DNA of 64,000 nucleotides. Source: an uncultured Candidatus Saccharibacteria bacterium (GTDB lineage: Bacteria > Patescibacteriota > Minisyncoccia > UBA6257 > 1-14-0-10-44-23). A program made the position numbers and the translations under genes. The notes beneath the pieces are model-generated. The model was not told the DNA's origin. It searched no databases and saw nothing but the letters and a program-made list of their open reading frames with translations. Shown one piece after another: positions 23,783-60,585 of this stretch (position 1 is its first letter; every line of letters starts with the position of its first letter). Where the stretch lies: positions 11,105 through 75,104 of the forward strand of contig CAYWPI010000001.1 of NCBI GenBank assembly GCA_964460325.1, read 5' to 3'.

Positions 23783-24558
23783 GAATGTAATCGAAAGAAG
23801 TTCTCAAACAATTGAGCCACAACAATAGGACCCGTTCCGCCCGGGGTTGGCGTTACCAACTTTGTCTTCATCGCAATCGCTTTCGCATCCACATCCCCCG
23901 TTGTTTTTCCATCAAGCTGGCCATATCCAAAATCAACCACTACTGCGTTCGGCTTAATGTGCATTTCATTAATAAGATGTGGCACCCCCGTTCCTGTAAC
24001 CACCAAGTCAGCCTCGCGGATAACCGCCTCATCCAACTTTGCCTTGCCAAGCACTGTAAGCTTGATGACCTTATCCATGAGCCAGGCTGCGCAGGGGCGA
24101 CCAATCAGCATGCCCGGGCCAACCACCACCGCTCGCTTACTAGTAAGATCAAACCCCACTTCTTCAAGAATATGCTTAAGTGCTCCGACGGCTGGCGGCA
24201 ATACTTTGGTTGTTTCACCATTCAACACGTCAACATCTTTCTCAATACCAATGGCATTTAACACGGGCACGCGGTCATATTTTTTCGGCAAAGGAAGCTG
24301 AACAATAACCGCACCCACTGATGGGTCGGCAGAAATTCCCCGCACCTGGCGCTCAAGCTCGCCCTGACTAAGTGTTTCCGGCAAGATATGGAGTACAAAG
24401 CGCACACCGAGTTCTTTTGCCACTTTTTCTTTTTGCTTTAGAAAACTAAGCGACGCCTTATCCTCGCCAACCAAAATTGCTGCCAGCACCTTTGTGGGCG
24501 TTTTCCTGGTCTTAAGCTGCTCAATAATTTTTTTCGCAATAGCGTTTCCATCAATCAT
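23779..24558 (-). CDS. folD: Bifunctional methylenetetrahydrofolate dehydrogenase/cyclohydrolase
   Basis: N-terminal pattern MIDGNAIAKKI...AAILVGED and conserved FolD length (259 aa). Confidence 0.85.
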   Translation of the reverse strand: MIDGNAIAKKIIEQLKTRKTPTKVLAAILVGEDKASLSFLKQKEKVAKELGVRFVLHILPETLSQGELERQVRGISADPSVGAVIVQLPLPKKYDRVPVLNAIGIEKDVDVLNGETTKVLPPAVGALKHILEEVGFDLTSKRAVVVGPGMLIGRPCAAWLMDKVIKLTVLGKAKLDEAVIREADLVVTGTGVPHLINEMHIKPNAVVVDFGYGQLDGKTTGDVDAKAIAMKTKLVTPTPGGTGPIVVAQLFENFFRLHS

Positions 24559-24573
24559 ATCTTTAGAATATCA

Positions 24574-24909
24574 CTAAAGAACTTCGTTGATGATATAGCT
24601 TGCCACATAAAGTGCCGCGACAATGCAAGCCACCATAATAATATTTCTTTTTGAAAGCCTGTCGATAAATCGAGCTAACAGATAGTGAATGCCAAATATA
24701 TAGGCAAAAGGCAAAATAAACGCAAGCGGCGTTACCCACGGGGAGAGCAAAATCAGCCTGAACCAGGCAAAATTACTCATCAGCGGATTAAACACCCACT
24801 TGCAGCCAATAAAACACACATACCACGGCAGAGGCACGAAAAGAACGATGGCAACCGTCGTCAGCCACAACCCCTTGGGTTTCCTTTGAATAACTGAAGT
24901 ATTTTCCAT
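24574..24909 (-). CDS. Small membrane protein
   Basis: Hydrophobic 111-aa ORF. Confidence 0.35.
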   Translation of the reverse strand: MENTSVIQRKPKGLWLTTVAIVLFVPLPWYVCFIGCKWVFNPLMSNFAWFRLILLSPWVTPLAFILPFAYIFGIHYLLARFIDRLSKRNIIMVACIVAALYVASYIINEVL

Positions 24910-26130
24910 TTAATAAGGCAAAGGGAATTGCTTACACAATTTTACCACTTCTTTTTTGACTGACTCGGCCGGCTCTTTAAGATCAAACAAGTGATGCATA
25001 AACATTGCAATCAGCTTCATTTGTTTTTCTTTCATACCCCGACTAGTAACTGCCGGCGTGCCAATGCGAACCCCCGACGGCTTAAACGGCTTTTCATCGC
25101 CCGGCACCGAGTTGCGGTTGGCCACAATCCCCGCCTGTTCAAGCATCTGCTGAGCCGCCATGCCGTCTAAGCCCTTATTGCGCATGTCCACTACCAACAA
25201 GTGGCTGTCGGTTCCGCCAGAAACCAAATCAAACCCATATCCAGAAAGTGCCGCCTCAAGCGCCTTCGCGTTTTTCACAATCTGCTTTGCATAAGACCGA
25301 AAGGCCGACTTTTGCATCGCTTCGAACATCCAGGCAATAGCCGCCGTCTGATTATTATGCGGCCCACCCTGCAACCCCGGCATAATCGCCTTATCAATAA
25401 GCTTTGCCAACTCCTCGCCTTTAGTGAAAATAACTGCTCCACGAGGGCCGCGCATTGTTTTATGCGTAGTTGCCATCACCACGTCTGCATACGGAAACGG
25501 ACTGGGATATACGCCGCCGGCAATAAGCCCCGCCACGTGAGAAACGTCAGCAACCAATTTTGCGCCCACCGCATCGGCAATAGCTCGCATCTTTTTAAAA
25601 TCCAACAATCGGCTATATGAGGTGGTGCCCAAAATAATCATCGCTGGCTTATGCAGCTTTGCCAGTTGCGCCACTTCTGCATAATCAATAAGTCCGGTTT
25701 TAGGGCTCACGCCAAATTGCACCGACTTATAAAACGTTCCGGAAAAATTCACCGGATGCCCGTGTGTTAAGTGTCCGCCATCTGCCAGGCGCAATCCCAT
25801 TACCGTATCACCAGGCTTTGCCAGCGCAAAATAAATTGCCAAGTTCGCTGGTGAACCCGAATATGCCTGCACGTTGGCAAACCACTGGCCCTCCTTAAGC
25901 CCAAACACCTTCAAGCCCTCTTTCCGCGCAAGATTCTCAATCTCGTCGCAGAACTCGTTGCCCGGATAATATCGCCGACCCGGATAGCCTTCTGAATATT
26001 TATTAACGAGCGGACTGCCGAGGATTTTCAGCATCTCCGGATCAGCGACATTTTCCGATGGAATCAGATCAATCGTTTCCTGCTGGCGTTTTATCTCCTT
26101 CTTGATGAGTTCATTGAGCTTTTTTGACAT
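24910..26130 (-). CDS. glyA: Serine hydroxymethyltransferase
   Basis: PLP-lysine region VMATTHKTMRGPRG. Confidence 0.9.
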   Translation of the reverse strand: MSKKLNELIKKEIKRQQETIDLIPSENVADPEMLKILGSPLVNKYSEGYPGRRYYPGNEFCDEIENLARKEGLKVFGLKEGQWFANVQAYSGSPANLAIYFALAKPGDTVMGLRLADGGHLTHGHPVNFSGTFYKSVQFGVSPKTGLIDYAEVAQLAKLHKPAMIILGTTSYSRLLDFKKMRAIADAVGAKLVADVSHVAGLIAGGVYPSPFPYADVVMATTHKTMRGPRGAVIFTKGEELAKLIDKAIMPGLQGGPHNNQTAAIAWMFEAMQKSAFRSYAKQIVKNAKALEAALSGYGFDLVSGGTDSHLLVVDMRNKGLDGMAAQQMLEQAGIVANRNSVPGDEKPFKPSGVRIGTPAVTSRGMKEKQMKLIAMFMHHLFDLKEPAESVKKEVVKLCKQFPLPY

Positions 26131-42687: not shown

Positions 42688-45156
42688 ATGCCAATCATCT
42701 GGGGGATAATCACATTAATCAGTTGTATTGGTTTTATTGGTTTTATTGTTTTTTTTCTTATCCTTAGCCGTTTTCGGCAGCGAGGTGAACTCTCGCATTC
42801 GCTTGGCCTTGCCCTACTGCGCGTCCAATTGCCTCGCGCCCAAAAAGAAGAAGACAAAGGGGGCATGAGATCAACCGCGAACGATCTTCGAGAAAAGATC
42901 GCGGTTATGGAACAGGTGTATTCGCAGTTTGCCAACATCACCGAACACGGCCTGCACGCCTGGTTTTATGGCACTCCGTTCTTTTCTCTTGAAATTGTTG
43001 TTCCGCATGTGGGGCAAGAGGTCATTTTTTATTGTGCCGTACCCCGCAAATATGCCAGCGCCACCGAAAAGCTTATTCAGGGCGTATATCCAGACGCCAC
43101 CATCGAACCCGTGAAGGATTACACTATTTTCCAACCGGAAAGCAGTGTTTCGGCGGCCTATGCGCGCGGAAAAAGCAAGTTTTTGCCACTTAAGACATAT
43201 CAAACCATGGATGCAGATCCCCTAGGCAGCATTATTAATGCGTTTTCAAAAGTTTCCCATGATGGAGAAGGATTGGCACTACAAATCGTTTCTCGTCGCG
43301 CCGAAAGTCTTTGGAACACAAGGCTCATCCGACTCACTCGGTACTTGCGCGAAGGCAAGCCGCTGCACCGCGCATTAAAGGAAGCCAACAAATCGGAACT
43401 GCTTCGCGCGGCGCAGGGCAATAAAAGCGAGGAAAAAAGAAAACAGGAGGAGTATGAAAAACAAGCGGTGAATGAAACGCTTGTCGATATGGTTAATAAA
43501 AAAGCTCAGAAAATATTATTCGAGACTAACATTCGCATTGTCGCCGCGGCGAAAGATAAATCACGCGCCGACACCCTTCTCCAAGAGCTCGCCACGCCAT
43601 TTGCCCAATATATGATCGGTGACACCAATGGCATTACGTTTTCTAAAGTGAGTGGTCGTTCTCTGCAGCGGCTTGTCTATCAATTTTCATTCCGTACGCC
43701 CGACCCAGCCACGCCACTCATCCTTTCCTCAGAAGAACTTGCCAGCATCGCGCACCTGCCCAACACCGTCATTGGCGCCAGTCACCTGGCCGCAATCAAG
43801 GCTAAACAAGCACCCGTTCCGTTCAATATCCCCCGTACCGGATTACTGCTTGGCGTGAACACATTCCGGGGCACGGAAACGGAAATTCGGATGGCTGAAG
43901 ATGATCGTGCGCGCCATTTTTACATCATTGGGCAGACCGGGACCGGTAAGACATATTTTATGCGCAACATGATTATTCAAGACATTGAAGCCGGCAATGG
44001 CGTTTGCTTTATTGATCCGCATGGCGACATGTGCGAAGACATTCTGGGGACCATTCCCGCCAGCCGCATTGAAGACGTGATCTATTTTAACCCGGGAGAC
44101 GTGAGCCGTCCGATGGGCATGAACATGCTGGAATACGACCCTAAGTTTCCGGAACAAAAAACATTTATCATCAATGAACTGCTTGAGATTTTCAACAAAC
44201 TTTATGACATGAAAACTGCCGGAGGACCAATGTTTGAACAGTACTTCAGAAACGCCACCGCGCTGGTTATGGATGATATTCCAAGCGGCAACACGCTTTT
44301 AGAAATCAACCGGGTGTTTGTTGATAAAAAATTCAGGGATTATAAGCTTTCGCGCACTACCAACCCGCTGGTAAAAATCTTCTGGCGCGACATTGCCGAA
44401 AAAGCCGGCGGCGAGGCAAGCTTGCAAAACATTGTCCCCTATATCAGCTCCAAGTTTGACTCGTTCCTTTCAAATGAAATCATGCGGCCGATTGTGGCTC
44501 AAGAAAAATCTGCTTTCCGCTTGCGCGATGTGATGGACAGCAAAAAAATACTGCTGGTTAACTTAAGCAAAGGCCGCCTGGGCGAACTGAACAGCTCGCT
44601 TATTGGCCTTATCCTTGTCGGCAAGATTTTGATGGCGGCGTTTTCCCGCGTGGATATCCCAGAAAAAGATCGAAAGAGCTTTTATCTCTATATTGATGAG
44701 TTCCAAAACGTCACCACTAATTCTATTGAAACCATTCTCTCTGAAGCGCGTAAATATAAACTTTCGCTCACCATCGCCCACCAGTTTATCGCCCAGCTTG
44801 AAGAAGACACCTCAAAATCAGTATTCGGCAACGTGGGCTCGATGGCCGCATTCCGTGTTGGCGCAGAAGATGGTGAGTTTTTGGAAAAGCAGTTCGCGCC
44901 TACTTTTAATCAAAATGACCTCATCAATATTGATAATCGCAACTGCTACGTAAAGCTGCTCATTAACGGCACTACGGCTTTGCCGTTTTCCATGCGCACC
45001 GTGGCTGGCAAGCAGACCAATCCCGAACTGGCCGCCAAAGCTAAAGAGTATTCCCGTTTAGCATTTGGAAGAGATCGACAAGATGTTGAAAAAGAAGTAA
45101 TGGAAAAATTCGCGGCACTGGACAAGACGGCACAAAAACCAGTGTCTCCATTTTAA
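42688..45156 (+). CDS. Membrane-anchored P-loop ATPase (TraG/VirD4-like or DUF87/HerA-FtsK-like)
   Basis: N-terminal transmembrane segments, Walker A GQTGTGKT, Walker B LYIDEFQ. 822 aa. Confidence 0.5.
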   Translation: MPIIWGIITLISCIGFIGFIVFFLILSRFRQRGELSHSLGLALLRVQLPRAQKEEDKGGMRSTANDLREKIAVMEQVYSQFANITEHGLHAWFYGTPFFSLEIVVPHVGQEVIFYCAVPRKYASATEKLIQGVYPDATIEPVKDYTIFQPESSVSAAYARGKSKFLPLKTYQTMDADPLGSIINAFSKVSHDGEGLALQIVSRRAESLWNTRLIRLTRYLREGKPLHRALKEANKSELLRAAQGNKSEEKRKQEEYEKQAVNETLVDMVNKKAQKILFETNIRIVAAAKDKSRADTLLQELATPFAQYMIGDTNGITFSKVSGRSLQRLVYQFSFRTPDPATPLILSSEELASIAHLPNTVIGASHLAAIKAKQAPVPFNIPRTGLLLGVNTFRGTETEIRMAEDDRARHFYIIGQTGTGKTYFMRNMIIQDIEAGNGVCFIDPHGDMCEDILGTIPASRIEDVIYFNPGDVSRPMGMNMLEYDPKFPEQKTFIINELLEIFNKLYDMKTAGGPMFEQYFRNATALVMDDIPSGNTLLEINRVFVDKKFRDYKLSRTTNPLVKIFWRDIAEKAGGEASLQNIVPYISSKFDSFLSNEIMRPIVAQEKSAFRLRDVMDSKKILLVNLSKGRLGELNSSLIGLILVGKILMAAFSRVDIPEKDRKSFYLYIDEFQNVTTNSIETILSEARKYKLSLTIAHQFIAQLEEDTSKSVFGNVGSMAAFRVGAEDGEFLEKQFAPTFNQNDLINIDNRNCYVKLLINGTTALPFSMRTVAGKQTNPELAAKAKEYSRLAFGRDRQDVEKEVMEKFAALDKTAQKPVSPF

Positions 45157-45376: not shown

Positions 45377-45799
45377 TTAAAGCTTGAGATGAAAAACATT
45401 TGTATCTTTTATCGTAAAACCAAGCTTCCTATATAAACTATGAGCCGCTTTCCGATCAGGGCGACTTGTAAGCGCCACCTTTCTAACATTTTCTTTTTTA
45501 CCGATATCGATAAGCTCCTTCATCAGTCTCTCGCCCAGTCCACGCCCTCGATATCTTTCATCAACCACCAGATCCTCAATCATCGCCTTTGTCCCAATAA
45601 TCTGCCTCATAAGAATTAAACTTGCGGTCCCAATAAGCTTCTTCTTATCGAACAAGCCAAGCAGATACACATTCTTATCCTTCAATATTGATTTAAGCTG
45701 AGAATCAGTTAATACCTTATCTGGACTTAGTTGAGCAATCAATCCATTAAATTCTGGCACAAGCCCCTTTTTGAATCGTGTAATACGCAAAAGCTGCAT
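45377..45799 (-). CDS. GNAT-family N-acetyltransferase
   Basis: RGRGLGERLMKELI acetyl-CoA-binding motif. Start moved to MQLLRIT to avoid an 86-nt overlap. Confidence 0.65.
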   Translation of the reverse strand: MQLLRITRFKKGLVPEFNGLIAQLSPDKVLTDSQLKSILKDKNVYLLGLFDKKKLIGTASLILMRQIIGTKAMIEDLVVDERYRGRGLGERLMKELIDIGKKENVRKVALTSRPDRKAAHSLYRKLGFTIKDTNVFHLKL

Positions 45800-45803
45800 A
45801 TCA

Positions 45804-46532
45804 TTATTTTCTCTCTGGACCATTGTATTCCACATCGCCTTCCTCAAACCGGCGGTAGGGTTTTTCATTTTCGATTTCCTCAACAACATGCGCCATCATG
45901 CCCGGCATGCGGCCAAGAGCAAAAAACGCCTTGCCCAGCTTGGGTGAAAATCCCATCGTAACCAAAATTGCCGCCACAGCACCATCAATATTCAGCGGCA
46001 ACGTTTTCCCGCTTTGAGCCGCAAGCTCCTTTTCAATGAGCAGGGCTTTTTTAATAACCAAATCATTCACTTGTGCCTGCGCCGCGCGAACAAACAGCGC
46101 CGCTGTGCGCGGATCACTTTCTTTATAAATCTTATGTCCATAGCCGGCCAAGCGCTCTTTGTTTGCCAATGCGGCCGATACAATCTCTTTCGCCTCAGCA
46201 GAACGCATAAACAGCTCCATAGCTGCCTCAATGGCGCCGCCGTGATAATCGCCAATTGCCAGCAAATCAGCCGCCAGAGCCGCGTTTACGCTGTTTCCCG
46301 TGCTTGCCACCACGCGGCCCACAAACGCCGAAGGCACCTCAACGCCGTGTTCGATACAGGCAAGCAAACAAGCGCTTAACACCTCACTCTCACCTGGCTT
46401 TGGCATTCGCCCCAAAAGAAGCAAAAAGATGCCGTCAATAAAGCCATGCTCGGCGATTAATTGAGTAAGCTTCTGCCCGCGAATATACAATTCGCCGTCT
46501 TTGTGTGTGCTAATTTTTGTTTTCCACCGCAT
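45804..46532 (-). CDS. Citrate-synthase-like short protein (citryl-CoA lyase-like)
   Basis: Citrate synthase signature GYGHKIYKESDPR and an HGG motif in DYHGGAIEAA. Only 242 aa. Confidence 0.55.
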   Translation of the reverse strand: MRWKTKISTHKDGELYIRGQKLTQLIAEHGFIDGIFLLLLGRMPKPGESEVLSACLLACIEHGVEVPSAFVGRVVASTGNSVNAALAADLLAIGDYHGGAIEAAMELFMRSAEAKEIVSAALANKERLAGYGHKIYKESDPRTAALFVRAAQAQVNDLVIKKALLIEKELAAQSGKTLPLNIDGAVAAILVTMGFSPKLGKAFFALGRMPGMMAHVVEEIENEKPYRRFEEGDVEYNGPERK

Positions 46533-46602
46533 AGAGTAATCGCGAAAAATGCGAAAAAGAGTAATAATGCGAATGAGTCCTCTATACTATAAACTCTTGC
46601 CC

Positions 46603-47499
46603 TTAACTTAACAACTTTTTAAGTATTTCAGGGATGTCTTCAATGGTATCGCTGACGTGAATACCAGCGTCTTTCAAAGCTTTAATTTTCGACTCATATC
46701 CGCCTTTGCCCTTGCTTACAATCGCTCCCGCGTGCCCAAGCACCACTCCTTGTGCAAGCTTTTCAGTGAACCTGCCACCCACAATCGCCACAATTGGCTT
46801 GGTAAATCTTCCTGCTTTAATAAAATCCGCGACATCCTCTTCATAAGTTCCGCCAACCTCACCAAACATGACAATAGCTTTTGTCTCCGCATCTTGCTCA
46901 AAAAGCGGCAGGAGATCGACATAATCAGAGCCGGCAATAATGTCACCCCCAATACCAACGGCCGTGCTTTGGCCAAGGCCGGCGCGCGTAAGCGCGTTGG
47001 CAAGCTCTGCCACCATGCCGCCGCTTTTTGAAATAACCCCAATGGGCCCTGGAATAAACACCCGGCTGATTTCTCCGCTGCCCACACTGCCAACCTTGCC
47101 AAGCCCCGGAGAGATAATACCCACCGATGCGGGGCCAATAATGCGGGCGCCCATCTTGCGCGCCGTTGCCACCATAATCGAGCTGTCGCGCGGGGGCACA
47201 TATTCCGTAAGAATATTAATAAGCTTAATGCCCGCCTCAAGCGCTTCCAGCGCTGCATTTTTCACAAACTGGGGCGGCACCACGATAAGCGATAAGTTCA
47301 CCTCTGGGTGCGCCACAAGCGCCTCTTTAACGGAGTTATAAACGGGAATAGAATCCATATACTGCCCGCCCTTGCCCGGCGTCACACCACAAAGCACAGC
47401 AGTTCCATATTTCACCATCTCCCGGCACGCGCGCGAACCTTCTGTACCCGTAATGCCCTGAATGAGCACTTTTGTGTTTTTATCAACCAAGATCGCCAT
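46603..47499 (-). CDS. sucD: Succinyl-CoA synthetase alpha-like subunit (CoA-binding; phosphohistidine loop GHAGAI)
   Basis: Typical SucD motifs across 298 aa. Confidence 0.85.
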   Translation of the reverse strand: MAILVDKNTKVLIQGITGTEGSRACREMVKYGTAVLCGVTPGKGGQYMDSIPVYNSVKEALVAHPEVNLSLIVVPPQFVKNAALEALEAGIKLINILTEYVPPRDSSIMVATARKMGARIIGPASVGIISPGLGKVGSVGSGEISRVFIPGPIGVISKSGGMVAELANALTRAGLGQSTAVGIGGDIIAGSDYVDLLPLFEQDAETKAIVMFGEVGGTYEEDVADFIKAGRFTKPIVAIVGGRFTEKLAQGVVLGHAGAIVSKGKGGYESKIKALKDAGIHVSDTIEDIPEILKKLLS

Positions 47500-47531
47500 G
47501 TTGTTTGTTGTCAGTTGTTAGTTGTTAGTTG
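47500..47531 (-). promoter_or_regulatory. CAA/AAC-repeat leader between sucC stop and sucD start, with no Shine-Dalgarno sequence
   Basis: mRNA-sense CAACTAACAACTAACAACTGACAACAAACAAC immediately 5' of the ATG. A 20-nt core reappears inside sucC at 48196-48215. Confidence 0.35.
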
Positions 47532-48614
47532 TTAGTTCGTCTGCGGTGGCTTTATGCCACGATATGCCAAATCAACCACATACTGCGCGGTTTTTATCAT
47601 CGGCGTCTCACTACCATAGATATAAAACTCAAATCCCTCTTTTGCGGCAAACTCTTTTAGCATCACAATCGCTTCTTGCGTGCGCGGGCCGCCACGGCGG
47701 ATAACAAACGGAAAATTCGGTTTTGGGCTCACGTGCCGCAAGCCTTCCACAAACCCGCTCATGGTTTCATAAATATCCGTAAAGTTCGCTGTGCCGCCAA
47801 TCACCCAGCACGCCTTAATGCCGGGTTGAGCAAACACCTGCTTCGTAAGTTCAGTCACCACCTCTTTGGGCGGATTGCCGGAATACTCGGTATAATTTGC
47901 CGGCTTGCCGCCGGCTAACAGCAAGGCATCCATATTAATAAGCGAGGCGCCGCCGCCAGAAGCAATAACCGCAATATCGCCGCCCATTTGCTCCACACTG
48001 CGCCGTTTGCCCATATCAACCTTTGCATCACCCGCAAACAGCTTGCCGTCTTTTGTTTTAAGAATGGGGTTAATTTCAGCCACGGTCGCCTTCTCCTCAT
48101 TAAAAAGCTTCCAAAGCTTCATAACAATATCCGCCACACCAGGAATGTCTTCGCTTTGAAATCCCGCCGCCCTTAATTCCTGTTGTACGTTGTCAGTTGT
48201 TAGTTGTTGAAGCACGTCAATCGCATACACATACGCGTCATGAATGCCGCTGCCGCCCTTGGGACTTATAGCAAGCACGGGACCACGGCGCTTAGTGTCA
48301 TAACTGAATGACACATAAAATTCACCGGCCACGTCTGCCAGCTGCTCCACCAGTACTTTTTCAACCTTTTCGCCCTGAATTTCACCGCTAAGAAGTTTTA
48401 AAATAGCATCATTCAGTTCTTGTCCAGTCCGCGCGATAATAATCCCGCCTGCCTTTTTCCGATCAGTGGCCCGCACCTGAGCCTTGACGATGACTGGTAG
48501 CCTAATAGACGAGTGGTTAATTAGTGAACTTGCTGAATCCAAAACTTGCCGCGGCAAAAGCGGAATGTCATATTTGGCAAAAATCTCTTTTCCTTCGTAT
48601 TCAAACAGCTTCAT
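47532..48614 (-). CDS. sucC: Succinyl-CoA synthetase beta-like subunit (ATP-grasp)
   Basis: MKLFEYEGKEIFAKY ATP-grasp N-terminus. 360 aa. Confidence 0.8.
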   Translation of the reverse strand: MKLFEYEGKEIFAKYDIPLLPRQVLDSASSLINHSSIRLPVIVKAQVRATDRKKAGGIIIARTGQELNDAILKLLSGEIQGEKVEKVLVEQLADVAGEFYVSFSYDTKRRGPVLAISPKGGSGIHDAYVYAIDVLQQLTTDNVQQELRAAGFQSEDIPGVADIVMKLWKLFNEEKATVAEINPILKTKDGKLFAGDAKVDMGKRRSVEQMGGDIAVIASGGGASLINMDALLLAGGKPANYTEYSGNPPKEVVTELTKQVFAQPGIKACWVIGGTANFTDIYETMSGFVEGLRHVSPKPNFPFVIRRGGPRTQEAIVMLKEFAAKEGFEFYIYGSETPMIKTAQYVVDLAYRGIKPPQTN

Positions 48615-48640
48615 TGTGGTAAGAAATGAAAAGTAAAAAG

Positions 48641-48871: not shown

Positions 48872-48909
48872 ACGGTCATTTTACCACAATAAGAGCGCGC
48901 GTGCCCGAA

Positions 48910-50544: not shown

Positions 50545-53500
50545 TTAGTACCCTGCTGACTTAATAATACTCTCCGCTGTCTCATTCGCCGGGCACCTGA
50601 AGCTTTTTGAACCACCACATTTAGTACAATCAACCACTACAACCGGGAGCTGTGTGCAAGTAGCGCCAGCGGTCGCTGGATTATATGTTGCACGTCCTCG
50701 TTCATCAAGAGCATCTGCCAGACCGGGAGTGTATGGGATACCGCGCGAACGCAAAGTCGAGGCAAAATTTTTACATATTGTACATGTTCCCGGCTTCGCT
50801 GGTATATTACCAAACTCACCACCCCTCCCATATATTGTTATCGCACACTTACAACCAGCTCCAACGACCGGTGATGATTGCACAGGAGGCTGCTCTAAGC
50901 AACCACACTTCCCATCTGGCATTACTCCACAACGCCCACCCGCAGAAGTACACTTTTTCTGAGTACAGATTGAATTCTTTGCATTCCTATACTCCGGGGT
51001 CTTTATCGCCTCAGAAATCGGGACACCACCCCACGTCATGTTGCCCGCTCGATCCAGAACGATACCCATTTCATCCGCCTTAACTTCACAGCCTATAGGA
51101 TATTTTAACGACGTTGAAGGCGGTTGCAGTGGCGACTTCGGCTCCCGATAAGGAGTTGTCGGACTTTTAGTTTGCGGAGTTGTAGCTGGACTTCCTCCCG
51201 TCGAACCACCATCTGGCGTGACCGGAGGTTGTGTTGCTGGCGGCGGCGGACTACCACAGGCACATCCATCGCCACTCACAGTTGACTGACAAATACCAGC
51301 GGTACAATTAAGACCCTTCTTTGAACAGGCTGCGCTCGGCGAAACTCCGCCACAATCACCCCATGTTTCTTCAATGGAAATTAAGAAATTAATTTGCGTC
51401 TGAGTTAATCCGGCATCCTCTCCGTTCTCAGTTATTTGCTCTGGAGATGGACAGTTCCCTTTATCGTGGGGGACAAGTTTATCAATAAACTCTTGAGCCC
51501 GCTGAACATTCTCAGGTGAGTATCTAAGACAAGTGTTTACTTTCTCGCCAATCACACCCGGATCAATAACACCAGGGAAGTCAAACGGTTCATCTAAACC
51601 AAGCGGAGGCAAATCAGTTGGCTCACTAGGCTCTGGGGATACAAATGGCGGGTATTCTTCTCCATCCGAAATTTCTGGATCGGCAGGATTGACCGCAGGA
51701 ATATCAGGGAATTCAGAAGAATCAGGCGGTGTTAATGGCGCGCACATACATCCACCGCCGGCACTATTACTGCAAGACCCACCGGATTTGGCACAACTCC
51801 CAGAACATTCTCCCGTCGAACCCTTGCCAGTAACCCAATTCAATAATCTTTCCCAGAAGGTTGTATCATGACACGTATCTCCCGGCTCAAGCACAGGTGC
51901 AGCTGTCGGCGCATCGACTACAGGGGGTTGAGAGTCGTCATTTGAATCTGGCGAGGCGGTCGGGGCAGTAGGGGCTGAAGCTGGCGCAGCTGATCCGTTA
52001 CAGCTGCATGTAATAACATATTTCCCGTTTTGCAAAGTTGGTGATGACGGCGCACACTTCCCAGCAGAACAAGCCTTTGTATCTGTTGAACAAACAGCAC
52101 CTAATGCACCAGAGGCTATATTATCTGCAACAGCCTCTTTTTCCTTTTCCAAACGCTGAGTTTCACTGTTTAAATTCGTAACAAGGCTTGGCACCTGATT
52201 CCTTGCAACCTCAAGCCCACGATTATAATCACCGTTGCCGAGTTGAGTTATTTGTTGATTAATACTAGTAATTGATGCCGTAATTTGATTGAGAAGGTTT
52301 AATTGCTCATCAAGTTTTGCATTACCAACCCGAGTACAAGAACCCGCTTTGTCAGTTCCAACAACAGGCGGAACGGTAGGCACAACAGGAATCGGGGCAG
52401 GTTCGGTCGGTGTTACTGGTACAACAGGAGCAACTGGTTGCTCGCCAGTTGATTGCGGTACTGCTCCTGCTGGCACATTGCCATCACTAGCTCTATCAGG
52501 CGTAGAACCACCACAGCATTCAATTGAATACTGCAAATAACCACTTGCGGTCGTCCGCTTTACCAATACAGCTGGCCCACACTGACCACCTCCAGAGCAT
52601 TGTGCCGCTGGATCGCCGCCGCACATAAAATCTTTCGCGCTCGCCAACGCCTTCACGAGATTGTCATAAGTTGGTTTTATTCTCTGCGCAGCAAACCGCG
52701 CCTGCTCATCAGCTGACATCGACTGGCTTTTTTCACCTAAATACTGATAAAGCGCATTGAGCTCTAATAATGGATCAGTTACTGAAGGTGTAATTGTTTT
52801 TTGACACACTCTGGGCGCAGTTATATTCAAATCAGCACCTTCGGGATTCTGCGGAAGCCCGTCATTATTCCCGAAAATAGTCCCAAACACCTTCGCGCGA
52901 AATGCCGCTGCAAACTTTGATGGAAGGCTTAATATGCTGTCAGATGCTGATGCCGGAGCATCAGCCCCGCTACCACTACCCGCACCAGTCGATCCACCAG
53001 TGCCGGGAGTTGAACCACCTCCGCTAGTACCACCAGACCCAGCCGAACCTCCGTCTTTTACGGAATTCGTAATCCCGCACGCCATAGTCCAGTTGTAATT
53101 CACCTCAACCGCCGCCTCAACATTAACAGTAATCTTAACTGAATCACCCGAACCGCTCTGCTTAGCCTGTGTAACATACGCACCTTCATCACTCGAATCA
53201 TCCCCAGTATAAGTGCAGGCACCAATACTATATGTTAACTCCGTACCACACGGCTTACAGTTAGTCTCCTTCCCGTCATTGGGACACGAAACATCACAGG
53301 CGATAATCTTATTTTTTGCAGCACTCTCTGCATTAGCATTTGCACTCTCACAAGCCGACTTCTGCGCCGCTTCAAGCATTTCTCGAAACTCCCCTTGTAC
53401 GCGATTAATAAATTGCACACCATTTTCATATTGAGTCGTTTTGTTTGCACACTCAGTTCTGCAACTGATAATTGGGTAGGTAGACTGAGGACCGGCAACA

Positions 53501-55023
53501 TTTTCACATACAGTATACGCATCTTCACAAGCACCTGTTCCATGAGTAAGCGTCTGCGAAGCGCTGCCTGACCCCGTTACTGATTCAGCATTGCTTCCAG
53601 TCTTTGTTGTCGCAGGGCATGATGGCCCTTGAGTTGGCTCTGGCACTGGCGAACCAGTCACCTCCTGACATCCACAGGTCGGCACGGTAACTGCCTCATA
53701 TCCTCCCGTATCACCGCCAACCCACCGCCGATCTGATTGAGTTCCCGCAACACAGGTTCCCGCCGCACCACTAGAGGTGGTGCACTCGCCGCCACACTCA
53801 GAACGCTGAGCACACTCATCTCCACCACCAGTTGCCGTTGTGCCACTCGGAAGTTCACTGTCGGGCTTGCCACCAAACACATCATCGAAAAAGGAGGTAA
53901 TGTTTCGTAAAACATTCACGATGCCGTTGGTCACCACGCTAAGAGCGGTTGTGCGAGCATCAGGAACCGTAAAAACACCAACCTGGGTCTCAAGGTCAAC
54001 ACGACCCAACACATTATTGGCTGTCTTCACTGCAATTTCATCAATCAAATCACCCGCTTTTGTAACATGCAGCTCGGTAATGGTTCCTGTTTGAGTTTCG
54101 GCAAAAACTTGTTCCCCAGAAATAGTGGCAAAAACTTGTTCCCCAGAAATAATACGCGGAGCCACTTGGAAAGGAACACAATCAGAGCCGCATGCTTGCT
54201 GATCAGCATAAGCTTCTGCGGTTGTGGGCAATAAGATAACCTGCAACCTTTGTCCACTTACGGGATCCACGGTTTGCGTGTCTGCCGTTACCACATTCGT
54301 TGTTTGAGCGGGCACCCAAATCTGCAAAGCTGATTTCACTTGTGGAACAGAGGCGGCGGGAGCAGTTGTTACGCGTTGACCGGTTCCTGCATCTGCCGTT
54401 GGCTGCCTATCAATCACCGGTTCAGTTGTTACCCCGCTGGGAAGTTGCGGATCAGAAACAATGGGCGGCAGAGGATCTATAAGCGCTTGAATATTAGGAA
54501 CTTCCACAATTTTCGTCGCTCCGCCGGACACCGCCGAACCGCTCATCCACGCATCGATAAGACTTTTTGCATTTGCCCCCGGATCATATGGCTGGGTAAC
54601 AATACCCGCACCAGATCCCTTCGAATTACTAGGTGGTGTCACTGTTGAACCAGAGCCACCGGCTTGAGTTGCTCCTCCATCGTTACCTGTTACGTTTTGC
54701 GAACCAGAGCCTGATGGCTGAGTATAGCTTGGAAGGTCAGGCGTGAAATGAGGAAGAATCGGCTCTACTTCGAAATAAATACCACCCGGCTCTTGATCAT
54801 TTTTTCGTTCTTCATAAAAACTAGTTCCACTGGTATCCGCCATGTTGCCTCCCGCTCCGCCTTGATACACTTGAGCCAGCTGACTTGAGCCAACGATATC
54901 GGCCGGAATCACTGGGAGCATTCCCGTGACCAAAGCGAGTGCCGCAACCGGAAGCACAAGTCGAACAATATGTCGCATCATTGATATGTAAATAAAGTGT
55001 AAAGATAAAGAAGAGCTCCTCAA
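50545..55023 (-). CDS. Giant secreted Cys-, Gly- and Thr-rich surface protein (1492 aa)
   Basis: Signal peptide or N-terminal transmembrane segment. Numerous Cys-rich segments. Internal 27-nt perfect tandem duplication at ~54098-54151 (ISGEQVFA x2). Confidence 0.65.
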   Translation of the reverse strand: MRSSSLSLHFIYISMMRHIVRLVLPVAALALVTGMLPVIPADIVGSSQLAQVYQGGAGGNMADTSGTSFYEERKNDQEPGGIYFEVEPILPHFTPDLPSYTQPSGSGSQNVTGNDGGATQAGGSGSTVTPPSNSKGSGAGIVTQPYDPGANAKSLIDAWMSGSAVSGGATKIVEVPNIQALIDPLPPIVSDPQLPSGVTTEPVIDRQPTADAGTGQRVTTAPAASVPQVKSALQIWVPAQTTNVVTADTQTVDPVSGQRLQVILLPTTAEAYADQQACGSDCVPFQVAPRIISGEQVFATISGEQVFAETQTGTITELHVTKAGDLIDEIAVKTANNVLGRVDLETQVGVFTVPDARTTALSVVTNGIVNVLRNITSFFDDVFGGKPDSELPSGTTATGGGDECAQRSECGGECTTSSGAAGTCVAGTQSDRRWVGGDTGGYEAVTVPTCGCQEVTGSPVPEPTQGPSCPATTKTGSNAESVTGSGSASQTLTHGTGACEDAYTVCENVAGPQSTYPIISCRTECANKTTQYENGVQFINRVQGEFREMLEAAQKSACESANANAESAAKNKIIACDVSCPNDGKETNCKPCGTELTYSIGACTYTGDDSSDEGAYVTQAKQSGSGDSVKITVNVEAAVEVNYNWTMACGITNSVKDGGSAGSGGTSGGGSTPGTGGSTGAGSGSGADAPASASDSILSLPSKFAAAFRAKVFGTIFGNNDGLPQNPEGADLNITAPRVCQKTITPSVTDPLLELNALYQYLGEKSQSMSADEQARFAAQRIKPTYDNLVKALASAKDFMCGGDPAAQCSGGGQCGPAVLVKRTTASGYLQYSIECCGGSTPDRASDGNVPAGAVPQSTGEQPVAPVVPVTPTEPAPIPVVPTVPPVVGTDKAGSCTRVGNAKLDEQLNLLNQITASITSINQQITQLGNGDYNRGLEVARNQVPSLVTNLNSETQRLEKEKEAVADNIASGALGAVCSTDTKACSAGKCAPSSPTLQNGKYVITCSCNGSAAPASAPTAPTASPDSNDDSQPPVVDAPTAAPVLEPGDTCHDTTFWERLLNWVTGKGSTGECSGSCAKSGGSCSNSAGGGCMCAPLTPPDSSEFPDIPAVNPADPEISDGEEYPPFVSPEPSEPTDLPPLGLDEPFDFPGVIDPGVIGEKVNTCLRYSPENVQRAQEFIDKLVPHDKGNCPSPEQITENGEDAGLTQTQINFLISIEETWGDCGGVSPSAACSKKGLNCTAGICQSTVSGDGCACGSPPPPATQPPVTPDGGSTGGSPATTPQTKSPTTPYREPKSPLQPPSTSLKYPIGCEVKADEMGIVLDRAGNMTWGGVPISEAIKTPEYRNAKNSICTQKKCTSAGGRCGVMPDGKCGCLEQPPVQSSPVVGAGCKCAITIYGRGGEFGNIPAKPGTCTICKNFASTLRSRGIPYTPGLADALDERGRATYNPATAGATCTQLPVVVVDCTKCGGSKSFRCPANETAESIIKSAGY

Positions 55024-56260: not shown

Positions 56261-57061
56261 TTAACCCAACACCCGCACGCGGCGCTTCCCTTCATGTCGC
56301 TCCGCCTCACTGACAATCTTCTCCATTATGGTTACCGCCTCAACTGGATACTTGCCACGTGCCGTCTCTTCTGAAAGCATTACGCCATCTGCGCCACCTA
56401 AAATCGCATACGCGACATCCGAAACCTCCGCTCGAGTCGGCGCCGGATTTTCCACCATTGAAAGCAACATCTGCGTGGCGACAATAACAGGCTTCTTGGC
56501 CTTATGCGCGGTCTTAATTATGCGCTGTTGAGCAAACGGAATTGTTTCAAGCGGAATTTCATTCCCCAAATCGCCACGGGCCACCATCACCGCATCACTC
56601 GCTTTTATAATTGCCCGCAAGTCATCAAGCGCCGCCTGCCGCTCTATCTTGGCGATAATGGGAATGCGCACTCCCCGCTTTTTCATTTCCGCCCGAAGCA
56701 ATTCAATGTCCCGCGCACTGCCCACATACGACATTGCCACATAATCAACCTTATGCGCCACGCCAAAATCAAGATCGGCCAAATCTTTTTGCGTTAAAAT
56801 CGCGTCACCGCCTTTAAAATGATGCCCACCAGCGTCTTGCATACGCGGCCCAGACAAGTCCTGTATAATTGGAATGCGCCTGCCCGCATCTTCAGCCGCT
56901 TGTCGGATAGTTTTAATATAATGCGCATGTTCTTCATACGTCCCCCAGGAAAAGTTAAGTCGCGCCACATCCATCTGATGCGCGACAAGCAGACGCATTA
57001 CTTCAATATGCTGCGTGGCAGGACCGATCGTCGCAATGATTTGAGCCGCTGAATGTTTCAT
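56261..57061 (-). CDS. Pyruvate-kinase-like protein, barrel (A) domain only, lacking the B and C domains
   Basis: PK motifs MVARGDLG and MLSEETA. Only 266 aa. Confidence 0.65.
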
Positions 57062-57069
57062 ATGATTTA

Positions 57070-58314
57070 TTATACTCCCTGCGCTTTTTCAATCGCGCAC
57101 AACCGATTATATTTTGCCATGCGCTCTGCCGGCCGAGGCGCGCCAGCCTTAATACCAAAACAGCCAAACGCAACGGCAAGATCAGCAATAAAATCATCCA
57201 TTGTTTCGCCGCTGCGATGGCTGACCACGCAATGAATATGATGCGCTCGCGCCAACGCGATAGCTTCTATTGTTTCTGAAACAGTGCCAATTTGGTTTGG
57301 TTTTATGATAATGCCGCCAATGCTTTTTTCGCCGATTGCCTTTTTTAGCCGGCCGACATTGGTCACCGTTAAATCGTCGCCGATCACAAGCAAACTGGGG
57401 TATTGGGCCGCCAGGCGCGCAAATCGACCAAAGTCTTCTTCCGCAAACGGGTCTTCGATCGAAAGCAGATTAAAATCTTTCATAAGTCCCGCATACATAC
57501 CAAAAAACTCGTCTTCGCTTACCGCTTTCCCATCCACGGCATACTTTTTGCCGTCATAAAAGGAAGAGGCGGCAACGTCCAAAGCAAAGCGCACCTTGTT
57601 TTCATAATGCAGTTCGCGCGCCACTGAGGCAAGCAACTCAAGCGGCAGCCGAGCAGAGGCAACATCTAAAGCAAAACCACCCTCATCGCCGGAGACGAGC
57701 GCCCGTTCGCCAAACTCATTTTTTATCTTTCGTTCCAAAGCCGCCTGCATCGCAATGCCAATCTCAAGCGCCTGAGCCACCGAATCAATCATCGGCACCA
57801 CGTGATATTCCTGAAATGCCAAGCGGCTTTTCGCGTGCTTACCACCATTAATAAGGTTCATGTAAAGATACGGTAGTGGCCGTGAGGATTGGATTACGGC
57901 AAGCGAGCGAAGATATGCAAACACCGGCACGCCCTGACATTGCGCCGCCGCCTTGGCCGCCGCCACGCTCACGCCGATAAGCGCGTTGCCACCCAACACG
58001 CTCTTGTTGTCCGTTCCATCTTTTTCAATCAGCACATCATCTATCTTTTTTTGCGCGCTCACTGGCTGACCAATAAGAAGCGGGGCGATGATATTATTTA
58101 CATTGGCAATTGCCTTAAACACGCCCTTACCATTGGCATATGCCGCATCGCCATCACGAAGCTCGTACGCCTCGTGCGCGCCTGTACTTGCACCCGAAGG
58201 AACCATGCATTCGCCCACCTTACCATCGGCAACCACACGCACCGAGATCGTAGGAACGCCCCGTGAATCGCGCACCTCGCGCGCCGTAATCGATTGAATT
58301 CGCGCATCCATCAT
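57070..58314 (-). CDS. eno: Enolase
   Basis: SHRSGETED-like motif SHRSGETMD. 414 aa. Confidence 0.9.
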
Positions 58315-58315
58315 A

Positions 58316-59584
58316 TTATTGCGCCTCCAACATGATCATTAAATCTGAAACATTTGCGCCTGTCGCGCCAGTATAGATAAGATCGCCCGTCTGAGAAAGC
58401 GCGGTCATCGCATCAAACCGCCGAATATGTTTCACCATATCAAGACCAGCCTTTTTTGCTCGCACGAGCGTACCAGCGTCTACTATACCTCCGGCGGCAT
58501 CACTATTATCCTTACCATCAGAAGCAAATGAAATAAACACCTGCTGCGGTTTCAATTTTGTCGCCATCGTAAGCGCCAAGTGCTGATTACGCCCACCTGA
58601 TCCGTGCGTAGTATTTACAACTAATCGAGGCTCACCACCAGCCAACACCGCGTGCTTGGGCCGACTGCTATGCATAAACTCTTCATCAAGCAAATCTATC
58701 TCGTCATACACCTTAGTTGAAAGCACAAGCGCCTTATACCCAAGTTCACCGCCGCGACGCTCCATCGCCTCAATTGCATTTACATTTGAAACTAAAATAT
58801 GGTTAGTAGTCCGTTCAAAATATTTATTTTCTTTGACGGTTTCTAACAGCCGATACGAGCCAAGATTATATTTATCAACAATGCGCTGCGCGTCTTTCAC
58901 TGTTGTCTTATCAAAATAGGTTGGCCCGGAAGCGATAATCTCTGGATGCTTACCAGGAACATCGGAAAAGACCAATCCAAATACGCGCGCCGGATACAGC
59001 AACTTAGCCAATCCACCGCCTTTTATGAGTGACAGGTGCTTGCGCACAATATTTAGCTCGTGAATAGTACCTGACGACTTAAGAAACGCGTTATACAGCG
59101 CCGCCCCCTGATCGCACTCATCCTCCGGCCAACATGTCAGTGCCGAGCCGCCGCCAGAGACAATCACCAGCACAATATCTTTTTCTGTGATGCCATTGGC
59201 AATCTCAATCAAACGTTTACTGGCAGCAATATTCGCCTCGGTCGGGCGCGGGTGCGTGCCAGCAAACATCTCAATGCGCTTTGACTGACCGCCTCCAATA
59301 CTAATTACCACGCCGCCGCTAATGCGGTCACCCAATATTGATTCAATTGTTTCCGCGGCTTTGGCCGCCGCCTTACCAAAACCAAACACAAGAACACGCC
59401 CTACTCCCCTGAGTGAAATAGCCTCATCCTGAATCGTCAGTTTATCTCCGGAAAGCTTAATTGCACCGCGAATAATAGTTTCCGTGTCAATTGCCGAAAG
59501 CCCCGCCTCCATAATGTGCAACCCATGCTCGCGAATTGGCGTAGTCGCAATCTCTTTGAAGTTCTGTATCCACGTTTTACTCAT
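58316..59584 (-). CDS. Glycerate 2-kinase (MOFRL family)
   Basis: DUF4147/MOFRL architecture. N-terminal Gly-rich loop VFGFGKAA. Confidence 0.7.
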   Translation of the reverse strand: MSKTWIQNFKEIATTPIREHGLHIMEAGLSAIDTETIIRGAIKLSGDKLTIQDEAISLRGVGRVLVFGFGKAAAKAAETIESILGDRISGGVVISIGGGQSKRIEMFAGTHPRPTEANIAASKRLIEIANGITEKDIVLVIVSGGGSALTCWPEDECDQGAALYNAFLKSSGTIHELNIVRKHLSLIKGGGLAKLLYPARVFGLVFSDVPGKHPEIIASGPTYFDKTTVKDAQRIVDKYNLGSYRLLETVKENKYFERTTNHILVSNVNAIEAMERRGGELGYKALVLSTKVYDEIDLLDEEFMHSSRPKHAVLAGGEPRLVVNTTHGSGGRNQHLALTMATKLKPQQVFISFASDGKDNSDAAGGIVDAGTLVRAKKAGLDMVKHIRRFDAMTALSQTGDLIYTGATGANVSDLMIMLEAQ

Positions 59585-60585
59585 AGTGCAACAAGATTGA
59601 CTGGCTTGCCGGCGATAAATCCCTTAATACTTTCCGCGGTTAACCCCAGAATGCGTTGTACCGCCTCTTTGGAATAAAAGGCAATGTGCGGGGTCACAAT
59701 AACGTTTGGCATGTCTAAAAGCATATAATCGTTTAACAGCGTCTTAAAATTGCGCGGATGATCTGCGGAAGCGGTCAAATGAATTTCTTCTTTAAGTTCG
59801 CGCTCGCCTTCAAGCACATCAAGCCCCGCGCCCGCCAATATGCCATTTTTAAGCACCTCCACCAACGCTTCAGTCTCCACAATTTCACCGCGAGCCGTAT
59901 TAATAAGATAGGCGCCCTTCTTGATAAACCGCATATTCTCTTTATTGAGCAGGTGATGCGTGTCGGGCAAATACGGCACGTGAATAGAGATAATGTCAGA
60001 AGCAGAAAGTAGTTCAATAAGCGGCACATATTCAAACCCAGCCTCTTCCGCCAGCGCCATATCCGGCCGCGGATCACAACCAAGAATTTTCATATGAAAC
60101 GCGTTGGCAAGCTTTACCATCTCGCGGCCAATCTTGCCCACACCGATAATGCCAAGCGTCTTTCCTTCAAGATCAAACCCCTGCAACTGATCAATACTGA
60201 AGTCACCCTGTGTTTTAAGCTGCTGATGCGCTGCTTCAATTTTGCGCGAGAATGAAAAGATCAGCCCAAACGCGAACTCTGCCACCGTTCGACTGCCATA
60301 CGTTGGCGCATTGGCAACCAGAATGCCTTTTTCTTTCGCATAGGCGCAATCCACGTTATCATAACCCGTTGAGCGCGCGACAATAAGCTTCACATTCGGC
60401 AACTGCTCAAGCACTTCCTTGCTGGCAGTTGAATTTATGAAAAGAGAAATAATATCAGCATCCTTTGCTTTGCTTGCCGTTTGCACGTTCAAATCCTCTT
60501 CAAAATAATCCACCGGTACGCCGACAAGCAACCGCTCTAAACTTTCCCGCTCCACCCCTGAAATGCCAAAAACAGATACTTTCAT
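59581..60585 (-). CDS. D-isomer-specific 2-hydroxyacid dehydrogenase (glycerate/hydroxypyruvate reductase-like)
   Basis: NAD-binding GIIGVGKIG and a catalytic His region. Confidence 0.8.
   Translation of the reverse strand: MKVSVFGISGVERESLERLLVGVPVDYFEEDLNVQTASKAKDADIISLFINSTASKEVLEQLPNVKLIVARSTGYDNVDCAYAKEKGILVANAPTYGSRTVAEFAFGLIFSFSRKIEAAHQQLKTQGDFSIDQLQGFDLEGKTLGIIGVGKIGREMVKLANAFHMKILGCDPRPDMALAEEAGFEYVPLIELLSASDIISIHVPYLPDTHHLLNKENMRFIKKGAYLINTARGEIVETEALVEVLKNGILAGAGLDVLEGERELKEEIHLTASADHPRNFKTLLNDYMLLDMPNVIVTPHIAFYSKEAVQRILGLTAESIKGFIAGKPVNLVAL

Follow-up and report, generated by a model that had tools for sequence, protein, structure and literature searches.

Three consecutive genes on the minus strand of a 64,000-nt stretch of contig CAYWPI010000001.1 (the window; statements on genome content below are limited to these 64 kb) were analysed as a candidate citrate-cleavage module. 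They are followed by a fourth gene in the same direction. The four features are:

47532..48614, minus strand: predicted beta (large) subunit of 360 amino acids (aa), resembling the beta subunits of citryl-CoA synthetase (CCS) and ATP-citrate lyase (ACL) (Pfam, NCBIfam, PDB, motifs, neighbour-joining tree)
46603..47499, minus strand: predicted alpha (small) subunit of 298 aa, SucD/CcsB-like (Pfam CoA_binding and Ligase_CoA, GHAGA motif)
45804..46532, minus strand: predicted citryl-CoA lyase (CCL) of 242 aa, with the C-terminal catalytic core of citrate synthase only (NF004869, PDB 6hxp)
45377..45799, minus strand: GNAT N-acetyltransferase, most likely of 140 aa (Pfam Acetyltransf_1, 1e-19)

The beta and alpha genes are 32 nt apart, and alpha is separated by 70 nt from the CCL gene, which lies in another reading frame. 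The Pfam and NCBIfam E-values for the trio ranged from 1e-16 to 1e-88, far beyond chance. In an initial annotation of this DNA, a SucCD-like beta and alpha pair followed by a 242-aa protein had been described; this was confirmed, with the GNAT gene as an addition. The same annotation had proposed a citryl-CoA synthetase/lyase module or a split ACL, which is supported by the citrate-binding domain and citrate-site residues of beta, its position in a clade with 81% bootstrap support, and the matches of the 242-aa protein to NF004869 and 6hxp. Very probably the trio cleaves citrate at the expense of ATP by two enzymes, as in the CCS/CCL system (EC 6.2.1.18 and EC 4.1.3.34), and is equivalent to an unfused ACL (EC 2.3.3.8).

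In the beta subunit, Pfam recognised an ATP-grasp_2 domain (PF08442, 1e-31) and a Citrate_bind domain (PF16114, the citrate-binding domain of ACL, 3e-23), and gave no match to the SucC-type Ligase_CoA domain (PF00549). Scores against the SucC models of NCBIfam were below the cutoffs (NF001913, 164.6 against 370; TIGR01016, 163 against 375) and came from the N-terminal half of the protein. The best match in a sequence search of solved structures was the CCS large subunit of Hydrogenobacter thermophilus (6hxq_B, 137 bits); Chlorobium AclB (6hxj_A) scored 127 bits and Thermus SucC 111 bits. When the C-terminal domain was compared alone, the scores were 92 bits for AclB, 77 for CcsA, 53 for human ACLY and 27-34 for any SucC. 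For the ATP-grasp half the top score was that of Thermus SucC (84 bits). The ATP-grasp motifs were intact (K44 in VKAQV, EINP and the DAK motif).

In crystal structures of human ACLY, citrate is bound by residues 280-281, 307-310, 343-348 and 379 (PMC11365397). The corresponding residues of beta are S219-G220, Y244-S245-G246-N247, G274-T275-A276-N277-F278-T279 and R307. All citrate-contact positions of ACLY on the beta side were kept in the query, and they were invariant or nearly so in 56 homologs from the candidate phyla radiation (CPR). The citrate-site motifs 1 to 4, read as columns of a MAFFT alignment of 155 sequences, were as follows:

Query beta: GGGAS / YSGNP / GGTANFTD / IRRGGP
Betas of 19 Paceibacteria loci: motifs 1-3 as in the query (three with ASFT), motif 4 mostly RRDGP
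Chlorobium AclB: GGGAS / YSGDP / ANFT / RRGGP
Human ACLY: GGGAS / YSGAP / ANFT / RRGGP
Hydrogenobacter CcsA: GGGGS / IGGNP / ANNT / RRNGP
SucC proteins: GAGL(V/A/T) / (I/V)GGGA / FGGI(T/V)R / (V/M)R(L/V)xGT

SucC thus differed from beta at all four motifs. A neighbour-joining tree (370 columns, 100 bootstraps) placed the query within a 90-member clade (81% bootstrap) that contained all proteins of the ANFT/ANNT type, including AclB and CcsA, and excluded every SucC. The Paceibacteria with a short beta formed a subgroup with 84% support. The linker between the two domains has 16-22 residues in Paceibacteria, against 53-59 in relatives of about 400 aa and 41-45 in SucC. An AlphaFold2 model of beta (mean pLDDT 91.7) had 6hxq_B as its top Foldseek match; because the beta subunits of succinyl-CoA synthetase (SCS) and ACL scored almost as well, the fold confirms the superfamily only and does not discriminate within it.

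Among 1.84 billion cluster representatives, 3726 relatives of beta were found at E ≤1e-3 but just 103 at E ≤1e-30, which makes the family of ACL/CCS betas a compact one next to SucC. Some relatives were much longer than the query: P0123 (484 aa), P0131 (561 aa), P0224 (602 aa) and P0196 (1023 aa). The last of these resembles a single-chain fusion of the ACLY type, to which beta, alpha and CCL all align.

The 242-aa protein passed the NCBIfam model for citryl-CoA lyase (NF004869, 251.9 bits, cutoff 212) and matched the solved CCL of Hydrogenobacter over its full length (6hxp; E 1.2e-57, about 198 bits, 45% identity). Its scores were at most 102 bits against any solved citrate synthase and 61-75 bits against the CCL modules of ACL. 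It failed the citrate synthase models of NCBIfam (28-105 bits, cutoffs 332-594), and its length compares with about 360-430 aa for citrate synthases. The absence of the N-terminal half of citrate synthase, which had been noticed in the initial annotation, was borne out by the Pfam Citrate_synt match, which covers model positions 162-355 of 357. The motifs listed there were also found: GHAGA in alpha, and YHGGA (aa 96-100) and GYGHKIYKESDPR (aa 130-142) in the 242-aa protein.

The catalytic positions H62, H97, H133, R142, D183, R208 and R227 of the lyase showed 97-100% conservation across 119 homologs, each about 240 aa long, in the contexts H97-G-G, G-x-G-H133, D-P-R142 and N-x-D183. We take them to be the equivalents of H238, H274, H320, R329, D375, R401 and R421, respectively, of pig citrate synthase. 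No fused form was present among the best 120 homologs, all of about 240 aa. Because these residues are kept in so many homologs of the same length, the gene is not considered a pseudogene; by its conservation the 242-aa protein is predicted to be a functional enzyme under purifying selection, and not a decayed citrate synthase. A full-length citrate synthase was not found in the window.

The alpha subunit consists of a CoA_binding domain (2.7e-24) and a Ligase_CoA domain (3.7e-16). Its phosphohistidine motif GHAGA is at aa 255-259 (window 46723..46737), and the glutamate of GExGG is also present. Alpha scored below the NCBIfam cutoffs for SucD (TIGR01019, 297.2 against 353.2; NF004230, 295.5 against 336). 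It was compared with the reference families by BLAST scores, with few CcsB and AclA references. SucD proteins, to which it is 40-48% identical, were its best PDB matches, and it is equally similar to Aeropyrum SucD and to the alpha subunit of a Microgenomates trio. The carboxylate substrate in this superfamily binds the C-terminal domain of beta, as seen in SCS and ACLY structures; alpha by itself appears uninformative on the substrate.

The closest homologs of all three proteins were from Patescibacteria (CPR), class Paceibacteria/Parcubacteria, which fits the small-genome fermentative lineage presumed in the initial annotation. They came from Wolfebacteria (71-74% identity), Nomura-, Harrison-, Ryan-, Colwell-, Wildermuth- and Sungbacteria. 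The window itself has roughly the housekeeping content typical of CPR, with aminoacyl-tRNA synthetases, topoisomerase, DprA, RelA/SpoT, ParB and ten tRNAs. The order beta-alpha-CCL was conserved in all 18 Paceibacteria loci with enough contig; four further loci ended before the third gene. The same order was seen in loci L029, L031, L032 and L044 and in the Microgenomates locus L035, where beta (422 aa) has the full-length linker and alpha is likewise not fused to CCL. Alpha always followed beta in CPR loci. SucCD loci in the same scan (Bacillus, Chloroflexi, Dehalococcoidales, Desulfurococcales, Alkalispirochaeta) were without a CCL gene. In the Nitrospirales locus L041, AclB (400 aa) was followed by a fused AclA (608 aa, with Ligase_CoA and Citrate_synt domains), aconitase and isocitrate dehydrogenase (IDH), with a 2-oxoacid:ferredoxin oxidoreductase adjoining.

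Of the characterised systems, the CcsA/CcsB and Ccl proteins of H. thermophilus and other Aquificaceae (6hxq, 6hxp) have the same three-polypeptide architecture: a large subunit with ATP-grasp and citrate-binding domains, a SucD-like small subunit with the phosphohistidine, and a lyase about 250 aa long that stands free. There are differences in detail. Beta has 360 aa with a shortened linker, against 429 aa for Hydrogenobacter CcsA, and its citrate loop is of the ACL type (YSGNP / ANFT / RRGGP) instead of the CcsA type (IGGNP / ANNT / RRNGP). Alpha is closer to SucD and lacks the C-terminal extension of CcsB (353 aa). All three genes form one operon here, unlike in the Aquificae, and the Aquificae enzymes work in the reductive tricarboxylic acid (TCA) cycle, whereas the trio has no TCA-cycle genes nearby.

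AclB/AclA (Chlorobium limicola, 6hxj; Nitrospirales) and eukaryotic ACLY share the gene order and the citrate residues of beta with the trio, and the overall reaction would match. AclA, however, is a single protein of about 610 aa with SucD-like and CCL parts, and the CPR trios, including that of Microgenomates, have two genes in its place, here in different frames. SucC/SucD share the superfamily fold (Foldseek E 1e-27 to 1e-31 for beta) and act through a phosphohistidine in the same way, but have succinate-site motifs and no lyase gene; in the trio, beta has citrate-site motifs and a lyase is always attached. Type II citrate synthase (about 370 aa) has the catalytic His/His/Asp and the oxaloacetate-binding arginines in common with CCL, and differs by its N-terminal half. 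By its architecture the trio belongs with CCS/CCL of the Aquificae, and it is equally describable as an unfused ACL. It is a variant in which the beta linker is short, alpha resembles SucD, a citrate loop of the ACL type occurs with a free CCL, and the context is sugar-biosynthetic and outside the TCA cycle. With its ACL-type citrate site and free CCL, the trio could be a living example of the stage that preceded fusion in ACL.

The catalysis can be proposed from homology to the characterised Hydrogenobacter, Chlorobium and human enzymes. ATP bound in the ATP-grasp domain of beta would phosphorylate the histidine of the GHAGA motif in alpha. Citrate in the ACL-type pocket of the C-terminal domain of beta would then be converted to citryl-phosphate and, with CoA bound on alpha, to citryl-CoA. 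The separate 242-aa lyase would split citryl-CoA into acetyl-CoA and oxaloacetate by the His-His-Asp machinery of citrate synthase.

The GNAT gene downstream of the trio most likely starts with an ATG at 45799, 4 nt past the CCL stop codon. Alternative starts are those of the longest open reading frame (ORF), at 45889, and of the public gene call of 152 aa, at 45835. GNAT is probably co-transcribed with the trio. A promoter and terminator scan of 45100-49500 gave counts equal to the shuffled expectation and was uninformative on the operon boundaries. The genes upstream of beta in the same direction, containing DUF2061 and DUF5665, were rejected as parts of the module; their adjacency was kept in no relative.

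GNAT shares 33% identity with the GNAT that adjoins the trio of Microgenomates, and the order CCL-GNAT was kept in L044. Its best matches among solved structures included, at 23-35 bits, the GNA1 glucosamine-6-phosphate N-acetyltransferases of human, yeast, worm, plant and Aspergillus, and a Trypanosoma acetyltransferase that we also believe to be GNA1. A homolog with 38% identity was found in a glycan cluster with a family 4 glycosyltransferase (GT4), a PIG-L deacetylase, Bac_transf and an epimerase.

The genes flanking the trio in relatives were surveyed by a Pfam scan of 105 genes, three on each side of the trio in 23 loci. GlmS (GATase and SIS domains) was found 6-7 times, CofD/YvcK and hexapeptide-repeat proteins six times each (four of the latter with an NTP-transferase domain), epimerases four times and GNATs three times. 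NCBIfam identified neighbours as GlmS (797 bits), the UDP-GlcNAc-binding regulator YvcK (330 bits, cutoff 196), an acetylating acetaldehyde dehydrogenase (350 bits, cutoff 282), and an archaeal-type bifunctional GlmU just below the cutoff (281.5 bits, cutoff 292.1); acetyltransferase halves of GlmU were found too. In other loci the trio lies beside a PseB/CapD-type dehydratase, a DegT aminotransferase and a PseH-like GNAT, with glycosyltransferases, Bac_transf, Wzy and MurB farther away.

A tblastn search of 27 trio loci with a chosen probe set of amino-sugar and acetyltransferase genes showed a probe gene at ≤100 bp from the trio in 17 loci and within 4 kb in five more. In the window, the sole match of the probe set is the GNAT next to CCL. 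At least six arrangements were seen in all:

Arrangement 1: LeuRS-GlmS-trio-(GNAT)-YvcK-GlmU (LeuRS, leucyl-tRNA synthetase)
Arrangement 2: PurL, then the trio, then LbH/GlmS/YvcK (LbH, left-handed beta-helix protein)
Arrangement 3: DmpFG-TPP enzyme-epimerase-trio (TPP, thiamine pyrophosphate)
Arrangement 4: DegT...PseB...GNAT, then the trio
Arrangement 5: trio-LbH
Arrangement 6: trio-GNAT, or GNAT then the trio

Because of these distinct arrangements, the association is not one inherited, frozen block of synteny.

'HMGL-like' neighbours of some trios were considered as oxaloacetate decarboxylases of a citrate fermentation and rejected; they are DmpG-type aldolases paired with acetylating acetaldehyde dehydrogenase in sugar-modification clusters. 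In the Ryanbacteria-like loci L005, L007 and L032 (e.g. L032 3499-8004), the trio follows a cluster of acetylating acetaldehyde dehydrogenase, DmpG-type aldolase, an acetolactate-synthase-like TPP enzyme and an epimerase, amid glycosyltransferase genes. This is an unusual setting for DmpFG, and the cluster may represent a pathway for branched or C2-extended sugars. In L014 (2622-5978), the GlmS-like ORF directly upstream of the trio has about 1118 aa, nearly twice the normal length, with two separate GlmS tblastn matches; an intein, a duplication or a fusion could explain it.

CPR bacteria are thought to lack the TCA cycle and to depend on hosts, and to our knowledge it has seldom been asked where they obtain the acetyl-CoA that peptidoglycan and surface glycans require. 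Apart from the trio, no TCA-cycle enzymes were found among the ORFs of ≥150 aa in the window. Aconitase, IDH, 2-oxoglutarate:ferredoxin oxidoreductase, fumarate reductase and malate dehydrogenase were not found in the window or in the flanks of the CPR relatives. Since no TCA-cycle genes surround the operon, the trio probably does not serve a reductive TCA cycle. Its neighbours all consume acetyl-CoA or make sugars that become acetylated, and for this reason we tentatively suggest that the module supplies acetyl-CoA from citrate for the acetylation of amino sugars. Scavenged citrate would be converted to acetyl-CoA for N- and O-acetylation of amino sugars, giving UDP-GlcNAc and other envelope glycan precursors.

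A more specific version, which we put forward with slightly greater reserve, is that in TCA-less Patescibacteria the trio is a dedicated anabolic acetyl-CoA generator, turning citrate from host or environment into the acetyl groups of amino-sugar and envelope glycans. The outlets would be GlmS / GlmU-like / YvcK, GNA1-like GNAT, hexapeptide acetyltransferases and the PseB/DegT pathways. The cytosolic ACLY of eukaryotes, which supplies acetyl-CoA for anabolism outside the TCA cycle, parallels the proposed role. Taken together, a CCS/CCL identity with a role in acetyl-CoA supply is probably the best explanation overall.

Other explanations were weighed against it. The three proteins might form an ACL-like holoenzyme, with a CCL core and docked beta and alpha subunits, in which citryl-CoA is channelled and never released. 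The order beta-alpha-CCL is what aclB-aclA would become if AclA were divided where its SucD-like part meets its CCL part (compare the Nitrospirales locus), and a tight operon favours stoichiometric co-expression. The citrate signature of beta (GGGAS / YSGxP / ANFT / RRGGP) is that of Chlorobium AclB and human ACLY, unlike that of Hydrogenobacter CcsA. However, the AclA linker of about 40 aa is absent, alpha ending where the SucD fold ends and CCL beginning where free CCL begins. The lyase is also much nearer to the free Hydrogenobacter CCL than to the CCL modules of ACL, and its best 120 homologs include no fusion. The citrate loop of the ACL type and a gene order like that of aclB-aclA point to channelling of citryl-CoA in a non-covalent complex; the lyase resembling free CCL and the absent linker point to its release. 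A holoenzyme of this kind is somewhat unlikely.

The same enzymes could run in reverse, from acetyl-CoA and oxaloacetate through citryl-CoA to citrate and ATP, as an ATP-conserving substitute for citrate synthase and a substrate-level phosphorylation in a fermenter. In favour of this, the net reaction of ACL lies near equilibrium, Desulfobacter postgatei reportedly makes citrate by ACL with a yield of ATP, and the window has no full-length citrate synthase of its own. This direction is nevertheless improbable: neither the window nor the flanks of the relatives contain aconitase, IDH or another consumer of citrate, a source of oxaloacetate would also be required, and the neighbours, overwhelmingly acetyl-CoA consumers in sugar biosynthesis, fit acetyl-CoA production.

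A CCS/CCL-like pair acting on another hydroxy-polycarboxylate, such as 2-methylcitrate or another citrate analogue, and yielding another acyl-CoA or keto-acid, is highly improbable. It would be compatible with the RRDGP motif, in place of RRGGP, in most CPR betas and with ASFT, in place of ANFT, in three of them; the identity of the pair is read from sequence, and the citrate synthase fold also carries 2-methylcitrate synthases, which were among the weaker NCBIfam and PDB matches. Yet the query keeps every citrate-contact residue of the ACLY crystal structures, and its CCL retains the oxaloacetate-binding arginines and the histidines of citrate synthase and CCL.

The initial annotation had also allowed for an ordinary succinyl-CoA (or acetyl-CoA) synthetase beside an unrelated or decaying remnant of citrate synthase. 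Genuine SucD proteins are indeed the best matches of alpha, the ATP-grasp half of beta scored highest with Thermus SucC, and some public names of beta are 'succinyl-CoA synthetase beta subunit' or 'acetate--CoA ligase family protein'. Nonetheless, the C-terminal domain of beta is of the ACL type, with SucC differing at the four citrate-site motifs, and both subunits remained under the NCBIfam cutoffs for SucC and SucD. The length, sequence, position and catalytic residues of CCL are kept across more than 100 homologs, and real SucCD loci lack such a lyase neighbour. Beta thus did not cluster with SucC and the lyase is not a pseudogene, so that this explanation is effectively refuted.

Several points weigh against a CCS/CCL that supplies acetyl-CoA. 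On the side of identity, alpha is nearer to archaeal SucD (276-288 bits; 2yv2, 288) than to CcsB (6hxq_A, 216-217) or AclA (172). Of the placement against reference proteins suggested in the initial annotation, beta (ACL/CCS clade) and CCL (free CCL) came out as proposed, and alpha was by BLAST scores as much SucD-like as CcsB-like. The branching order deep inside the ACL/CCS clade had less than 40% bootstrap support, the beta linker is about 37-43 residues shorter than in the relatives of about 400 aa, and Foldseek does not separate the betas of CCS, SCS and ACL (E 1e-21 to 1e-32, TM-scores 0.5-0.67). The activity of the CPR members is deduced from sequence comparison. On the side of the role, the similarity of GNAT to GNA1 is weak, and five of the 27 trio loci (about a fifth) had no neighbour from the probe set, two of these five being contigs of about 3 kb with almost no flanks. 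Gene adjacency is correlational, and the genomes compared are related and do not count as independent of one another. The window showed neither a citrate transporter nor an enzyme that would consume oxaloacetate, and other sources of acetyl-CoA (pyruvate:ferredoxin oxidoreductase, acetyl-CoA synthetase) or a citrate synthase may lie outside it.

CPR and DPANN sequences annotated as SCS or citrate synthase have been found to group with CCS or CCL (2022 preprint, 10.1101/2022.10.25.513756), and an enrichment of aclAB in metagenome-assembled genomes of Saccharimonadia was mentioned in a 2025 paper (PMC12577380). NCBI names the lyase 'citryl-CoA lyase'. Beta appears in public records as succinyl-CoA synthetase beta subunit, acetate--CoA ligase family protein, ATP-grasp protein or hypothetical protein, and sometimes as 'ATP citrate lyase citrate-binding domain-containing protein'. 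With such inconsistent names, pathway surveys could mis-score genomes as having a partial TCA or reductive TCA cycle. Beyond passing mentions, our literature search gave no paper that ties these genes to neighbourhoods of glmS, glmU or acetyltransferase genes or that gives them a role in CPR. The module is therefore not new in kind, and its context of sugar and acetyltransferase genes seems undescribed.

The identity of the enzymes will not surprise a specialist; the anabolic role bears on how host-dependent CPR bacteria obtain acetyl-CoA. The position of the operon beside glmS, glmU and acetyltransferase genes suggests a route from host citrate through acetyl-CoA to acetylated sugars, and citrate is a metabolite that could matter for the cultivation of these organisms. 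That a citrate pocket of the ACL type occurs together with an alpha resembling SucD and with a free CCL, in aclB-aclA order, may help to order the steps from SCS through CCS/CCL to ACL.

Elsewhere in the window, genes for a D-2-hydroxyacid dehydrogenase, a glycerate 2-kinase (DUF4147/MOFRL), enolase and pyruvate kinase are clustered at 56261..60585 (minus strand). The pyruvate kinase is unusually short (266 aa) and has the barrel domain only. Serine hydroxymethyltransferase and FolD are encoded at 23779..26130 (minus strand). Together these genes point to a conversion of serine or hydroxypyruvate to pyruvate by way of glycerate, 2-phosphoglycerate and phosphoenolpyruvate.

Convergent to the operon, an 822-aa coupling ATPase of the VirD4/TrwB type (DUF87, TrwB_AAD_bind motifs) is encoded at 42688..45156 (plus strand). 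Homologs of it lie a few kb from the trio in two relatives (L006, 10507-11646; L044, 2268-4712). The minus strand at 50545..55023 encodes a protein of 1492 aa in which Cys, Gly, Ser, Thr and Pro are abundant; it has many repeated CxxC-like cysteine motifs and no Pfam match, and is probably secreted or located at the surface. A large serine recombinase ORF of 601 aa (15450..17255, plus strand) is overlapped on the other strand by a tRNA-Leu(GAG) at 16913..16994 (minus strand), which was predicted by both ARAGORN and Rfam. Two explanations offer themselves: the recombinase ORF as read runs too far at its 3' end, or an integrated element contains the tRNA.

Finally, the LeuRS encoded at 380..3301 (minus strand) has 973 aa and contains an in-frame insert of about 185 aa (about aa 237-421); LeuRS in related loci has about 812 aa and no insert. 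The insert is a serine hydrolase of the YdeN/RBBP9 type (PF06821, 5.5e-15; PDB 1uxo, 36 bits) in which the nucleophile motif G-H-S-x-G is retained. It sits precisely where the CP1 editing domain is entered, with NWIGRSEGVEIDFKI on one side and VFTTRPDTLFG on the other, and may represent a novel cis-acting hydrolase module.

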